In this document: piece by piece, positions 7,571 to 12,493 of the stretch | Layout: each line of letters begins with the position of its first letter | How positions within the stretch are numbered: the first letter of the stretch is position 1 | NCBI GenBank assembly: GCA_028279215.1 | Contig: JANQOF010000048.1 | Location: forward strand, 6,533 to 70,532 | DNA length: 64,000 nt | From: Pirellulales bacterium | GTDB taxonomy: Bacteria > Planctomycetota > Planctomycetia > Pirellulales > Lacipirellulaceae | Direction of reading: 5' to 3' | Program-made: the position numbers and the translations under genes | Notes under the pieces: model-generated | Databases searched by the model: none | Seen by the model: the letters and a program-made list of their open reading frames with translations, nothing else | What the model was told of the DNA's origin: nothing

Positions 7571-7685
7571 CTTTGGTCCAACCTAAATTGCGCGCACTGA
7601 ACAGTGGCAAGCACCTGCCGCTTGCCTGGAAGAAATGCGCATCGTTGCTCCATCATGTTTTTTTGTTTTCCAAGGGGATTTGAAA

Positions 7686-8450
7686 ATGGGACTCGCTTCA
7701 ATGAAGAACTGCACCTCTCTGGCGGTCGTCGCCTGTCTGGCATTTGCCACCGTAGCCGGTGCCGGAACTATTAACCTCAACATGGAAGGTCTGGATCTTA
7801 TGTACGATGGTCCGGCAAACGTCGTCCGCGACCTGAGTTCACTGGGGACTCCTGCTGGCGGGAATCTTGATCCAGATGAGTCCGATCGCCTTGATGCCGC
7901 CACGTTCACCTTCGACGATATGGTGGTCGAACAGTACACCGCGTCAGACATGATCTTCGCAGACATCTTGGTGGAGAATCTGCCTGGCATGATTACCGCA
8001 CCAGACATCAACAGCATTCCCGACCCCGGCCCAGTGACGTTCGTCCTTGGAGACAATCAGGGCGGCTTTGGATTCGACTGGTTCCACGTGGTCGATGGTT
8101 CGGTCGAAAGTTCGTTGGAACTTAACTTTGATCAAGTGGTCGTCACACTAATGGATACTGGTGCTGGCGATCCCATCATTACCATCAGTGCATCGACAAC
8201 GAACTGGACGTCGTTCAACTTGCCCGGCCTATTGGCATTTGATCCTGGGACCCTGCTGCGATTCTCGTACACCGCCCAAAATACCGCTGCGGCACCCAAT
8301 GACGCCGAAGCGTACGACGTCGTCTTCGGCATGAAGGGCGTTGCCACTATCTCTGGCGAAGGCACCAACATTCCGGAGCCGTCGGCCGCCTACCTGATGC
8401 TCCTCGGAATGGGAGCAGCGGTGGCGATCGCCAGATATCGCCTGGGCTAG
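7686..8450 (+). CDS. PEP-CTERM sorting domain protein
   Basis: Signal peptide MGLASMKNCTSLAVVACLAFATVAGA; C-terminal IPEPSAAYLMLLGMGAAVAIARYRLG. Confidence 0.85.
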   Translation: MGLASMKNCTSLAVVACLAFATVAGAGTINLNMEGLDLMYDGPANVVRDLSSLGTPAGGNLDPDESDRLDAATFTFDDMVVEQYTASDMIFADILVENLPGMITAPDINSIPDPGPVTFVLGDNQGGFGFDWFHVVDGSVESSLELNFDQVVVTLMDTGAGDPIITISASTTNWTSFNLPGLLAFDPGTLLRFSYTAQNTAAAPNDAEAYDVVFGMKGVATISGEGTNIPEPSAAYLMLLGMGAAVAIARYRLG

Positions 8451-8507
8451 CTACCGACACGAAACTGCCGGCAAGGTCCCGCCTTGCCAACCGTACAAGT
8501 TGCTGCG

Positions 8508-8544
8508 AACCGACCGAGGTGTCCCCTTCCTCGGTCGGTTTTTT
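8508..8544 (+). terminator. Intrinsic terminator
   Basis: 12-bp perfect stem aaccgaccgagg/cctcggtcggtt, 9-nt loop, followed by a T run, downstream of the PEP-CTERM gene. Confidence 0.8.
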
Positions 8545-8670
8545 GCTGCGCCGAGAGCGGTACTTGAGCCGTCTTGTGCCGTATTTTCGCCCTGCGGGAC
8601 ATGTGCTAAGCTACACGGCTTTCCGGCACGATTGGGCGCGGGGTGTGTCGTCTGTTCCACCGAGGTTCCT

Positions 8671-9753
8671 ATGTCTGAACATGAGCAAGCTAACGAAACG
8701 CCAAGCCCTGCGCAGCACGTTTCGTTGTCGCGCGTATTCAAGACGGTCGTTCCGATCGTCATCGTGTTGGTTGCCGGCGCCTGGGCGGCGCAGACGCATT
8801 GGCAAACTTCCGCGCAACGAGACCTCGAAGCGAGTCAACTTGGCCGACTCCTGGGGCGTGAAGGTGCAGAACCCGTGGTCTACATCGAGTTTGTTGACGG
8901 CGACGGCGACCTGCTCGCCGATGCACCGACAGACGACAAATGTGTAACTCCTGATAAAATCGTATTCTCGTATGTTGCCGAAGAAGACCCGGGAGACGTT
9001 GCTGCCACATGGCAGCCATGGCTCGATCAACTCGCCGAAGCGACTGGCTTGCCCACCGAATACGCACAGTTCACGAAAGTCGACGATCAACTCAAGGCCC
9101 TCGGAAACGGTGGACTTCATATCACAGCGGTTAATACGGGTGCCGTGCCTATGGCGGTGACCACGGCCGGGTTCATTCCGGTTTGCACCTTCGGCACCGA
9201 CGGCGATTTCGGCTACACGATGAACCTGATCGTCCCCGCCAAAGGTTCGGCCAAGGAGGTCACCGACTTGCGAGGCAAGAAGATCACCTTCGTTAGACCC
9301 AACTCTAACTCCGGATTCAAAGCGGCTCTTGTCTACTTGATGTCGGAGCACGACATGCTCCCTGAACGCGACTATCAGTACGGTTTCTCGATGGGACACG
9401 ACGCATCAATCCAAGAAGTGGCCAATGGCAAGACCGATGCAGCCCCTGTGGCCAGCGACCTGTTCGATCGCATGGCCGCTGCGGGCGAAGTGGACGACTC
9501 GTCCGTGCGGGTGATCTACAAGTCGGAGCGATTTCCTCCGGTAGCGCTGGGTTATGCATACAATCTGGCGCCAACACTGCGCGATGCGATTACCCAACAA
9601 CTCAGCGATTTTGATTGGGAGGGGACGCCGTTTGGCGATGCGTACGGTGCTTCGGGCGCTACGGGTTTTGTTCCGGTCAACTACAAGGACGACTGGGCCA
9701 ACATCCGTCGTATCGACGACACCATCGATCGTGCGCGCGAGTCACGGCAATAG
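8671..9753 (+). CDS. PhnD/PtxB-like phosphate/phosphite/phosphonate-binding protein
   Basis: Motifs DLRGKKITFVRPNSNSGF, GHDASIQEV, DAAPVASD and IYKSERFPP; N-terminal TM helix; start moved to ATG 8671. Confidence 0.85.
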   Translation: MSEHEQANETPSPAQHVSLSRVFKTVVPIVIVLVAGAWAAQTHWQTSAQRDLEASQLGRLLGREGAEPVVYIEFVDGDGDLLADAPTDDKCVTPDKIVFSYVAEEDPGDVAATWQPWLDQLAEATGLPTEYAQFTKVDDQLKALGNGGLHITAVNTGAVPMAVTTAGFIPVCTFGTDGDFGYTMNLIVPAKGSAKEVTDLRGKKITFVRPNSNSGFKAALVYLMSEHDMLPERDYQYGFSMGHDASIQEVANGKTDAAPVASDLFDRMAAAGEVDDSSVRVIYKSERFPPVALGYAYNLAPTLRDAITQQLSDFDWEGTPFGDAYGASGATGFVPVNYKDDWANIRRIDDTIDRARESRQ

Positions 9754-9762
9754 CAACCCTCG

Positions 9763-10578
9763 CTAGTTTCTAGCCGCAACAAGTCGTTGCCGCCGTGCTT
9801 CGTAAAACAGCACCGCCGCAGTCGCGGCCACGTTGAGGCTATCAGCCACGCCGGACATCGGTAACGTGACGCCAACCGATTCGCCGCCATGCCAGTCGTC
9901 GGGCAGGCCTTCTGCCTCGTTGCCCAGCACGATTGCGCCACCGACTGTGTAGTCGACGTTGTAGTAGGGCTGGCTCGCGTCGGGCCGCGCTGCCCATACC
10001 GCCAATTCTCGATCGTCAAGCCACTTGAATGTCGCGTCGGTCGTCGCCACGACGACGTTCGATTGAAACACGGCCGCAACGCTCGCGCGGACTGCATTCG
10101 GGTTAAAGAGATCGATCACCGGGTCGACCACCACTACCGCGTCGACGCCTGCTCCGTCGGCCGAACGCAACATGGCGCCCAGGTTCCCGGGCTTCTCAAT
10201 ACCCACTAGCACGGCCACCAGTGGGCTCTCTGGAAGGGCGAGGTCCGTCAGCCCGCGGCGTGGCGTGGCGAACACCGAAACCACCCCGTCCAAGCGGTCG
10301 CCGTAGGCGATTTTGTTGAACACTTCGTCCGAAACTTCAATGCACTCCGCGCCGGATGTGGCGAGCAACTCGACCACATCGCTTGCGTCCGCATGTCGAT
10401 ACAGCTCGCCACACCAATAGCACTCAATTGGATGCGCGCCAGCTTCCAACGCTCGACGGGATTCGCGCACCCCATACACGAGCGCTCGATCAAGTGCGTC
10501 GCGCTGCCCGCGGCTGCGAAGCGCGCAAACCGCCTTGACGCGTGGGTTTTGGCGACTGGTGATCACTGGGAAGGACAC
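9763..10578 (-). CDS. SpoU/TrmH-family RNA 2'-O-methyltransferase
   Basis: ITSRQNPRVK, EKPGNLGAMLRSADGAG, IVLGNEAEGL, LPMSGVADSLNVAATAA; AAGGAG RBS before GTG 10578. Confidence 0.92.
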   Translation of the reverse strand: MSFPVITSRQNPRVKAVCALRSRGQRDALDRALVYGVRESRRALEAGAHPIECYWCGELYRHADASDVVELLATSGAECIEVSDEVFNKIAYGDRLDGVVSVFATPRRGLTDLALPESPLVAVLVGIEKPGNLGAMLRSADGAGVDAVVVVDPVIDLFNPNAVRASVAAVFQSNVVVATTDATFKWLDDRELAVWAARPDASQPYYNVDYTVGGAIVLGNEAEGLPDDWHGGESVGVTLPMSGVADSLNVAATAAVLFYEARRQRLVAARN

Positions 10579-12374
10579 ACCGTCTCCTTGCTCCCGGAGG
10601 CTGCCCATTCGCGCGGCGGCGCCTCGTAGGTCACCTGCTCGCCAGTGCCGGGATGCTCGATACTAATCTTCCAGGAGTGTAAGCACATCGGTGGATCGTC
10701 GACATCAAGCGATTGCGACGCTCGGACAACTCTGTCGGGCTGATACGTTGGATCCCCCAACACCGGATGGCCCAACGACCATAGATGCAACCGAATCTGG
10801 TTGGTGCGGCCAGTAATTGGTGTCGCCAACAGAAGCGTCGTGCCGTCGGCGTGTCGCTCAACGACGCGAAACGCCGTGCGAGCGCTCACGCCGTTCTCGT
10901 CGAGCAACCGCGCGCCGGCGACGGAAGCGTCACGAGCAATCGACGCAGTGCATGTGAACTCGTCGTCAAGCGGATGGCCAACGATGCGTGCCATGTACTG
11001 CTTGGCGACATTTCCTGCCGAAAACTGCGATTGAAGGTGACGTGCCGAGCGTCTGCGGCGGGCAAACAGCGCCACGCCTGTCGTGTTCGCATCGAGACGG
11101 TGGGCGTGACGCAAGCGCTCAGGTGCATAGGCCGGAACAAGCAGCGCCGCGAGGGTGTTTTTGTTAAACCGGCCGCCTGGATGAATCGGCAGCGGGGCCG
11201 GCTTGTCGATGACGACGATGTCCCCGTCTTCATGCAGAATGCGAATATCAGCATTAACATTTGGCTCGACCATGCGGGGCGTCAGATGCTCGTACTTCTC
11301 GCCGGCAATCACACGGCGCCTCGCATCGACGGGCGCGCCGTCCATCAGAATTCTTCCTTCAATCAATCGAGCCTCCCATTGAGCACGATCGACCGATGGC
11401 ACGGCGGCAGTCAAGAAGTCAAGCATCTCGAACCCGTGCCACTCGCCCGCCACGTGCAACGGACGAGTGTTGTCGTACGGCTCACTACCAGGAAGCGGTC
11501 GGCTCGCTACTCGGATCGCTTCATGACGACCGGCAATGATTGCTCTTATGGCCTCGTCGGTGGTGCGATAACAGAAAGGGCATGACTCGCCTTTGACGTA
11601 ACGGTCCGACTGCTGGTCCTCGAGTGTAAGAATTGCCTGGCATGCGTAGCACTGGGCAGCGTCGGTTTCGCGGAGCGCCGTGTCGACAGCCACGCGCTGA
11701 TCAAACACAAAACAGTCGCCCTCGTAGTGCGCCTTGCCAACCTTCTCAAAATAGTTCAGTATTCCGCCGTCGAGTTGATACACATCTTCGAAGCCCAGCT
11801 TCTCCAGCATCGGGCCAGCCTTTTCGCAGCGAATGCCGCCGGTGCAAAACGTCACGACCGGTTGCTTGCGCACCTCGTCAGGCAGCGCCCTTGCAGCCTG
11901 GGGGAAATCGCGAAAGTGCCCGATGTCCAACCGCTCCGCGCCCTTGAAGGTTCCAAGCTTCACTTCGTAGTCGTTACGTGTGTCGAGCAATACGACTTGC
12001 TGCCCTGTATCAAGCCAAGACTTTAGTTCGATCGGCGAAACCCGTTTCGATGTGTACTTCGCGGGGGAAATGCCATCGACGCCAAACGCGATGATCTCCT
12101 TCTTCACCTTTACCAGCATCCGGCGGAAAGGTTGATGATCAGTCCAACTTTCTTTGGTGCTAAGCGGGCCGATCTCGGCGTCCGCCTGCAGGTGCGCCAC
12201 CAACGCGTCCACCGCCGTTCGATCGCCAGCGACAAACAAATTGATCCCCTCCTCGGCCAGCAATATCGTGCCGCGCAGCGCCAACTCTTGACACAGCCCG
12301 CGCAACTCGCTTCGGCGGTCGCCAAGGCGCGAAAGGGTGACGAATTTGTAGGCCGCAATGTTCAAAATCGACAT
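10563..12374 (-). CDS. trhO: Fusion of TrhO (rhodanese/UPF0176 tRNA U34 hydroxylase) and RluA/C/D-family pseudouridine synthase
   Basis: N-half: LRGTILLAEEGIN, DTRNDYE, FCTGGIRCEK, YQLDGGILNY, CFVFDQRV. C-half: S4-like segment, IDKPAPLPIHPGG, catalytic HRLD, PITGRTNQIRLHL, GHPVLGDPTY, CLHS. Confidence 0.88.
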   Translation of the reverse strand: MSILNIAAYKFVTLSRLGDRRSELRGLCQELALRGTILLAEEGINLFVAGDRTAVDALVAHLQADAEIGPLSTKESWTDHQPFRRMLVKVKKEIIAFGVDGISPAKYTSKRVSPIELKSWLDTGQQVVLLDTRNDYEVKLGTFKGAERLDIGHFRDFPQAARALPDEVRKQPVVTFCTGGIRCEKAGPMLEKLGFEDVYQLDGGILNYFEKVGKAHYEGDCFVFDQRVAVDTALRETDAAQCYACQAILTLEDQQSDRYVKGESCPFCYRTTDEAIRAIIAGRHEAIRVASRPLPGSEPYDNTRPLHVAGEWHGFEMLDFLTAAVPSVDRAQWEARLIEGRILMDGAPVDARRRVIAGEKYEHLTPRMVEPNVNADIRILHEDGDIVVIDKPAPLPIHPGGRFNKNTLAALLVPAYAPERLRHAHRLDANTTGVALFARRRRSARHLQSQFSAGNVAKQYMARIVGHPLDDEFTCTASIARDASVAGARLLDENGVSARTAFRVVERHADGTTLLLATPITGRTNQIRLHLWSLGHPVLGDPTYQPDRVVRASQSLDVDDPPMCLHSWKISIEHPGTGEQVTYEAPPREWAASGSKETVCPSQ

Positions 12375-12493
12375 AATGCAATTATGGTTCCGGCATGGCG
12401 GTTAGGGAATGGATGGCCGCTCAAAGGACTGCCGCTGCGTGGGCCGAGCGATTACAATGCGCTGGCCCTCACCTTCCTACGAGTTATCGCTAG

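Follow-up and report, generated by a model that had tools for sequence, protein, structure and literature searches.

The RNA hydroxylase TrhO (YceA, UPF0176) is described from Escherichia coli, Bacillus subtilis and Pseudomonas aeruginosa. Residues of its rhodanese active-site loop have been mutated in E. coli, and the loop was concluded to be responsible for the formation of 5-hydroxyuridine at tRNA position 34 (ho5U34) (PMC6599085); the P. aeruginosa enzyme has been validated genetically (PMC12288880). TrhO can also be joined to a second RNA modifier, as in the TrhO-TrmR fusions of Phytophthora and Phaeodactylum (PMC6599085). RluA, for its part, is the synthase of tRNA pseudouridine 32 and 23S rRNA pseudouridine 746. 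Here we analyse a gene in which TrhO and an RluA-type pseudouridine synthase share one polypeptide. It lies on a stretch of 64,000 nucleotides from a Pirellulales bacterium (assembly GCA_028279215.1, contig JANQOF010000048.1, positions 6,533 to 70,532), hereafter the window. A preliminary description of this stretch, made from its letters, had noticed the fusion and taken it, together with an overlapping SpoU/TrmH gene, for a possible single-pass anticodon-loop modification unit of three activities.

The fusion of the first two activities proves to be conserved in two phyla and under selection, and is very probably a real two-activity protein. The third gene turns out to be a neighbour of local significance only.

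A TrhO module and an RluA-type synthase in one reading frame

The fusion gene is an uninterrupted frame of 603 codons on the minus strand and encodes the only TrhO of this 4.56-Mb genome. It is composed as follows, all coordinates being those of the window:

10563..12374, minus strand: fusion gene (TrhO module, linker, S4-fold segment and RluA-family pseudouridine synthase), open reading frame (ORF) of 603 amino acids
12093..12362, minus strand: UPF0176_N domain (acylphosphatase-like), amino acids 5-94; PF17773, 89.6 bits
11751..12035, minus strand: Rhodanese domain, amino acids 114-208; PF00581
11820-11849, minus strand: TrhO active-site loop FCTGGIRCEK, amino acids 176-185, within the Rhodanese domain
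11565..11723, minus strand: partial Rhodanese_C and Cys4 zinc ribbon; partial match to PF12368
11571-11651, minus strand: ribbon cysteines C242, C245, C265 and C268 (CxxC..CxxC)
11475..11561, minus strand: linker helix, amino acids 272-290 (helix H272-290 of the AlphaFold2 model), and PLPGSxPY motif, amino acids 293-300 (from conservation)
11250..11444, minus strand: S4-fold segment, amino acids 311-375; alignment to the S4 region of RluD
10605..11249, minus strand: RluA-family catalytic domain, amino acids 376-590; PF00849, 90.9 bits
11091-11102, minus strand: HRLD, amino acids 425-428, with the catalytic Asp428, within the RluA-family catalytic domain

In Pfam, the UPF0176_N and Rhodanese domains are followed by a Rhodanese_C match at amino acids 218-247, which covers only the first half of that model, and by PseudoU_synth_2 at 385-531. 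The N-terminal module thus has the domain order of TrhO: UPF0176_N, rhodanese and a Cys-rich C-terminal part. Among NCBIfam models, the TrhO equivalog NF001133 scores 245.7 bits (cut-off 170), the PRK05320 branch of the TrhO family 340.9 bits (cut-off 331) and TIGR00005 (rluA_subfam) 199.2 bits over amino acids 311-586 (cut-off 192.7). The ORF and both sets of profiles agree with the first description of a full TrhO followed by a full RluA-type synthase, and the loop FCTGGIRCEK, the CxxC..CxxC pairs and HRLD at 11091-11102 lie where that description had placed them. The synthase also carries the RluA-family motif GRTNQIR, whose counterpart in E. coli RluA is GRSHQLR.

The AlphaFold2 model of the fusion has a mean predicted local distance difference test score (pLDDT) of 87.6. 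Foldseek matches it to the TrhO structures 4f67 and 9j5o, the latter being B. subtilis TrhO with tRNA-Ala. The top structural match of the catalytic domain is the complex of RluA with RNA, an anticodon stem-loop (2i82; template modelling (TM) score 0.83-0.85, 33% identity).

The segment ahead of the catalytic domain had been called S4-like. At the level of fold, and only there, the term appears to hold: from amino acid ~311 onwards the sequence aligns to the S4 region of RluD (TIGR00005 and RluD alignments), the model places helices at 317-324 and 330-338 ahead of strands, and Foldseek aligns the fusion to full-length RluD (2ist) over 307 columns. Profiles lend it no support: searched at E<=10, neither this segment nor the linker gives a Pfam match to S4.

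Both active sites are invariant among homologues

Among 5.8 billion proteins searched, we found more than 120 full-length homologues of ~600 amino acids, which are 52-70% identical to the fusion and all show its three Pfam domains. Their sources are Planctomycetota (Aeoliella, Posidoniimonas, Rosistilla, Stratiformator, Calycomorphotria) and Verrucomicrobiota (Prosthecobacter, Roseimicrobium and others), so that the fusion is conserved in two phyla.

Conservation was computed on 120 of these full-length proteins. Residues C177, T178, G179, G180, R182 and C183 of the TrhO loop are invariant in all 120, as are the four ribbon cysteines C242, C245, C265 and C268 and, in the synthase, H425, R426, L427, D428, Y460, R523 and R528. 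The linker keeps P295 and G296 without exception, and P293, L294, S297, P299 and Y300 in at least 90% of the alignment. Mean pairwise identity is 70% for the rhodanese, 62% for the zinc ribbon region, 58% for UPF0176_N, 57% for the pseudouridine catalytic domain, 46% for the linker and 37% for the S4-fold segment: the catalytic domain is on a par with UPF0176_N, and the S4-fold segment is the least conserved module.

That one of the two domains might be inactive, as considered at the outset, is not what these residues suggest: the active sites of both modules are intact. Relatives with two separate ORFs, another possibility raised then, are rare derived cases, namely one split locus (L112) and one frame with an internal stop (L089). 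These two are also all that speaks for an assembly artefact or a decaying pseudogene. The frame at our locus is unbroken, however, and the identical architecture recurs in many genera, with several of the homologues lying on complete chromosomes of multiple megabases. Together, the homologues and their invariant catalytic residues therefore exclude an artefact or a pseudogene, which we regard as next to impossible.

The synthase half follows TrhO, which can persist without it

We then sampled the 41 closest genomes, 301 species genomes of Planctomycetota and 251 of Verrucomicrobiota (~590 in total), the phyla being sampled evenly. Fourteen of the 41 closest relatives carry the fusion and five TrhO alone, the remainder having neither. 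The fusion is found in 11 planctomycetal genomes, all of the window's class, and a TrhO-type gene alone in 7; the corresponding verrucomicrobial counts are 7 and ~22.

In a maximum-likelihood tree of TrhO modules, all 20 sampled fusions fall into one clade (Shimodaira-Hasegawa-like approximate likelihood ratio test, 96), with free-standing proteobacterial proteins as its sister group. Nested within the clade are 11 TrhO-only sequences, one of which (L018) is possibly cut by a contig end, and well-supported branches force at least three state changes. The tree is in keeping with a single origin of the fusion and with later loss, more than once, of its synthase half. The clearest such loss is seen in a 2.8-Mb genome of the window's own genus (G005; locus L092, G005:C70, 1032-2845), where ~330 codons of pseudouridine module are cleanly missing: the TrhO ORF ends directly past the zinc ribbon, with a stop codon that overlaps the ATG of the very SpoU gene found in the window.

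Two full-length fusions bear Pseudomonadota labels, 'Rhizobiales bacterium TNE-4' (L013) and a 'Gammaproteobacteria bacterium' metagenome-assembled genome (L008). Both nest among verrucomicrobial sequences in the TrhO tree, which points to a wrong taxonomic label, to misbinning or to horizontal transfer.

The reverse situation, a synthase module away from TrhO, was met in none of the ~590 sampled genomes, with the reservation that only the top-scoring candidates of each genome were scored and rare exceptions may be missed. The module is always fused, or once adjacent: in the verrucomicrobial locus L112 (G590:C108, 372-2283), ORFs of 298 and 343 amino acids overlap by 17 nucleotides and carry extra residues at the junction, so that it appears to be a genuine split version of the fusion. 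From this distribution it follows that, in the sampled genomes, the pseudouridine half tracks TrhO whereas TrhO does not track the synthase half. Genomes without the fusion do not compensate for it either: none of those among the 41 closest relatives has an extra S4-bearing RluA paralogue, so that the fusion's pseudouridine would simply be missing there. The window's own genome has four further PF00849 genes, one RluD-like with S4, two short ones of the RluA family and one RluB-like.

Metagenomes add rare exceptions, among them a free-standing module (L087) with an intact synthase and a rhodanese-less variant. In the latter, typified by P0161 (L090/L091, 5001-6368), a divergent UPF0176_N is joined directly to the pseudouridine module, the rhodanese and zinc ribbon being deleted. 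Four such proteins (P0161, P0186, P0204 and P0240) measure 440-455 amino acids, one of them on a contig of up to 306 kb, and their retention of UPF0176_N suggests that this domain works for the synthase. Wherever the synthase module is free-standing or split off, it opens with the linker helix and PLPGSxPY; a terminal helix similar to the linker helix is found in free-standing Pseudomonas TrhO.

Two candidates were set aside. L089 (4173-5993, GCA_015655545.1), annotated as two genes, was rejected as a split locus: it is a fusion frame with one in-frame stop just ahead of the first zinc-ribbon cysteine, and this stop may reflect an error in sequencing or have arisen by recent mutation. P0179, a protein of 426 amino acids on a 6-kb contig with a DALR anticodon-binding match, was dropped as support for an anticodon substrate. 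Its pseudouridine module is preceded by HEAT-like repeats and what appears to be the extreme C-terminus of an arginyl-tRNA synthetase, so that a remnant or chimeric gene is the probable explanation.

The overlapping SpoU gene is a local neighbour

Downstream of the fusion, on the same strand and ending at 9763, lies the gene whose product had been assigned to the SpoU/TrmH family. The assignment is confirmed by Pfam, with PF00588 at 106.4 bits, PF22435 at 41.7 bits and PF08032 at 30.5 bits, the SPOUT domain being preceded by an L30e-like (MRM3-like) domain for substrate binding. The surroundings of the fusion gene comprise:

9763..10578, minus strand: SpoU/TrmH-family 2'-O-methyltransferase gene; probable start GTG 10578, alternative ATG 10608
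10563..10578, minus strand: overlap of the fusion stop with the SpoU start in a two-gene operon, 16 nucleotides, from the sequence
12375..12493, no strand: intergenic region separating the fusion gene from a divergently oriented S41 peptidase gene; putative operon promoter region, from ORF layout and Pfam

The length of the overlap depends on the SpoU start: 46 nucleotides with ATG 10608, 16 with GTG 10578 and 4 with GTG 10566. We favour 16 nucleotides, the value first reported, because the ATG of the orthologue in G005 aligns with GTG 10578.

The closest solved structures, at 160-193 bits, are 9h1k ('23S rRNA methyltransferase'), 4x3l and 1ipa (Thermus RrmA-type), and the downstream protein has in common with these RrmA-type enzymes the combination of an L30e-like domain and SPOUT. 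Four of its NCBIfam scores stay under cut-off: those for the anticodon-loop enzymes TrmL (33.9 against 190.6 bits) and TrmJ (TrmJ/YjtD family, 31.7 against 167.15), for TrmH (65.4 against 227) and for the RlmB equivalog (86.7 against 160.15). A single orthologue is present in 40 of the 41 closest relatives, whether or not TrhO is, and ~20 of those 40 lack TrhO. It abuts the fusion locus in the window's genus only, whose seven genomes all show the same close junction. In the other relatives it is found on a different contig or at a distance of hundreds of kb, and 12 distant fusion loci all lack a SpoU gene within ~6 kb.

These results bear directly on the idea of TrhO, synthase and SpoU as a three-activity unit that would modify the anticodon loop in a single pass. 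The overlapping stop and start and the tight operon throughout the genus are in its favour, but it is contradicted by synteny, by co-occurrence, by TrmL, TrmJ/YjtD and TrmH scores far under cut-off, and by the resemblance to RrmA-type 23S rRNA methyltransferases. We consider it highly improbable and, on the grounds of synteny and co-occurrence across relatives, reject a link between SpoU and the fusion. SpoU is a separate housekeeping methyltransferase, its target probably 23S rRNA, which is co-transcribed with the fusion only in this genus; the overlap reflects how the operon is packed locally, rather than a functional unit kept between lineages.

Elsewhere in this genome (C10:68490-68909), a SpoU_methylase domain (110 bits) is part of a 1069-amino-acid frame, unusually long for a SPOUT methyltransferase. 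Convergent with the SpoU gene of the window, the stop codons being 9 bp apart, is an ORF for a phosphonate-type ABC substrate-binding protein (8500-9753, plus strand). It comes after an ORF of 271 amino acids (7635-8450, plus strand) with a C-terminal PEP-CTERM-like sorting signal (IPEPSAAYLMLLGMGAAVAIARYRLG).

A proposal for two modifications of one anticodon loop

We propose that the fusion is a bifunctional RNA-modifying enzyme, with tRNA as its most likely substrate, that would form ho5U34 and a pseudouridine at a second uridine, preferably U32; this reading of the whole protein we consider reasonably likely. Of the unit first imagined, it retains the shared anticodon-loop substrate, the best reading for two fused modules, and drops the SpoU part.

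The N-terminal module would hydroxylate the wobble uridine U34 to ho5U in an O2-dependent reaction. We infer ho5U34 formation because the module is 30% identical to E. coli TrhO, has an identical CTGGIRCEKA loop, and this loop has been mutagenized in E. coli (PMC6599085). As substrates we expect UNN tRNAs from the NYN family boxes, namely Ala-UGC, Thr-UGU, Pro-UGG, Leu-UAG, Val-UAC and Ser-UGA.

The C-terminal S4-fold segment and RluA-type domain would use Asp428 to make pseudouridine from a different uridine. A base that is hydroxylated at C5 cannot also be isomerised, because C5 is the glycosidic carbon of pseudouridine. Since both reactions use C5, the synthase must act on another uridine than U34. 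The odds lean towards this uridine being in tRNA as well. A target in the same tRNA is favoured because the catalytic domain is closest in structure to RluA with an anticodon stem-loop (TM 0.85), because the synthase depends on TrhO in its distribution and not vice versa, because UPF0176_N is kept in the rhodanese-less variant, and because no paralogue compensates where the fusion is absent. Within the tRNA, the favoured target would be U32 of the same anticodon loop, with recognition of the tRNA supplied by the TrhO half. Position 32 itself is a tentative choice: the only uridines that the anticodon loops of candidate TrhO substrates in this genome have in common are U33 (5 of 5) and U32 (4 of 5).

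Several observations weigh against this proposal. As to position 32, tRNA-Val-UAC has C32; U32 is present in 24 of the 46 tRNAs of the genome, so that the position is not singled out and the argument from shared uridines is weak; and the consensus of RluA sites (pseudouridine-U-x-x-A-A-A) is not matched by the candidate loops. As to the synthase, an S4-type domain is characteristic of RluC and RluD, which act on rRNA, and is lacking in RluA, and the fusion does not approach the NCBIfam equivalog cut-offs for RluA (99.7 against 286 bits), RluC (101 against 378), RluD (91.8 against 351) or TruC (63.8 against 328). The predicted template modelling score (pTM) of the AlphaFold2 model, 0.60, leaves the relative placement of the two active sites unfixed. 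Finally, TrhO is accompanied neither by a known downstream enzyme (CmoB or TrmR) nor by TrhP, the hydroxylase that acts in parallel to it. No CmoB (TIGR00452) scores over cut-off in any of the 41 closest relatives, CmoA not having been searched; the window's own genome has no convincing TrmR-like methyltransferase, its best Methyltransf_3 match being 22.8 bits; and its genus has no U32 peptidase, hence neither TrhP nor RlhA. The usual pathway of 5-hydroxyuridine derivatives (xo5U) is accordingly incomplete in this genome, in which ho5U34 would be either the end product or elaborated by a further enzyme.

None of the profiles for CmoB, Methyltransf_3 (TrmR-like) and U32 peptidase tracks TrhO or the fusion across the 41 relatives. 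Of the 10 relatives with strong Methyltransf_3 matches, 5 also have TrhO, where chance alone would give 4.6. In 17 of the 41 (G007, G011, G015, G016, G020 and others) two tandem Peptidase_U32 domains are found in an open frame of ~830-960 amino acids, which is absent from the window's genus.

Other readings of the synthase half

The synthase half need not share its substrate with TrhO. While TrhO acts on tRNA U34, the S4-bearing module could be a 23S rRNA synthase of the RluC/RluD kind, the fusion merely ensuring co-expression. Such a division would agree with the alignment of the S4-fold segment to full-length RluD, with the nearly equal scores of the RluC and RluA models, and with the rRNA-type SpoU methyltransferase as operon partner in the genus. 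We give it some weight and yet think it unlikely, since the synthase module is almost exclusively joined to TrhO or beside it and is lost while TrhO persists, a distribution that independent substrates hardly explain. The variant that keeps the TrhO N-domain with the synthase also argues against it, as do the structural proximity of the catalytic domain to RluA, the tRNA-32 enzyme, and the S4-fold segment itself, which is both the least conserved part and the one that escapes the Pfam S4 model. The same rRNA could alternatively be the target of both halves. RlhA, a U32-peptidase-family relative of TrhP, makes ho5C2501, and the neighbouring pseudouridine 2504 is the target of RluC; a fusion retargeted to the peptidyl-transferase centre of 23S rRNA would join an O2-dependent 5-hydroxypyrimidine, as an aerobic counterpart of the RlhA product, to an RluC-type pseudouridine 2504. 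The lack of any U32-peptidase gene in the genus, the lack of CmoB or TrmR to process ho5U34 and the rRNA-type 2'-O-methyltransferase in the operon would all be in keeping with this idea, which we nevertheless find very unlikely.

Alternatively, the synthase module might serve TrhO chiefly as a non-catalytic platform, binding or chaperoning tRNA and boosting hydroxylation, with isomerisation dispensable. That TrhO can do without the module is shown by the TrhO-only forms nested among the fusions, and the S4 segment, with its weak conservation, could act as a general tether for RNA. Retained catalysis is, however, what the seven synthase residues invariant in 120 of 120 homologues argue for, and the synthase stays intact in the free-standing and rhodanese-less versions; we judge the platform quite unlikely.

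Comparison with known enzymes

The present analysis adds to the preliminary description the rejection of the SpoU link, the single origin with repeated loss, the one-sided dependence on TrhO and the missing downstream pathway. Fusion and one-sided loss together hint at a coupling of ho5U34 formation with a specific pseudouridine; if true, this coupling would be a tRNA 'modification circuit' hard-wired into one polypeptide. Should the pseudouridine target indeed be in tRNA, the synthase would represent a new specificity class within the RluA family. The fusion also offers a tractable system in which to study how the cofactor-less TrhO rhodanese recognizes and hydroxylates U34, and what becomes of ho5U34 in bacteria without CmoAB, TrmR and TrhP.

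Compared with TrhO, the N-terminal 270-290 amino acids of the fusion have the same domain order, and the loop CTGGIRCEKA is identical to that of E. coli, in which the CXGGXR motif with the catalytic Cys spans C200-R205 and the second Cys is C206. A Cys cluster comparable to the ribbon of the fusion is present in E. coli and Pseudomonas TrhO. The Pseudomonas homologue of the fusion's TrhO branch is 34% identical to E. coli TrhO and is consistent with the genetically validated P. aeruginosa enzyme (PMC12288880), although it is possibly not the same protein. What sets the fusion apart is the covalently attached pseudouridine synthase, its membership in the PRK05320-type branch and a genome without CmoB, TrmR and TrhP.

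On the synthase side, the fusion shares with RluA (2i82) the catalytic fold, the HRLD aspartate and the GRTNQIR/GRSHQLR motif, and differs from it by the low equivalog score, the extra N-terminal S4-fold segment and the PLPGSxPY linker. With RluD and RluC it appears to share the layout of an S4-fold followed by a catalytic domain, and TIGR00005 is over its cut-off; it differs from them by equivalog scores far from the cut-offs and by the presence of a separate RluD-like gene in the same genome.

MnmC and RlmKL are other bifunctional RNA modifiers. The literature that we searched contains no description of a TrhO-pseudouridine synthase fusion, TrhO-TrmR being the only TrhO fusions found there, and public databases name the protein only 'sulfurtransferase', 'tRNA uridine(34) hydroxylase' or 'RluA family pseudouridine synthase'. 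As in TrhO-TrmR, TrhO is joined here to a second RNA modifier, a 'Rosetta-stone' hint of a shared substrate. The two cases differ in that TrmR takes the next step of the pathway on the same nucleotide, whereas a pseudouridine synthase cannot use the same uridine. Both parent families are well known: what appears to be new is their combination, conserved in Planctomycetota and Verrucomicrobiota.

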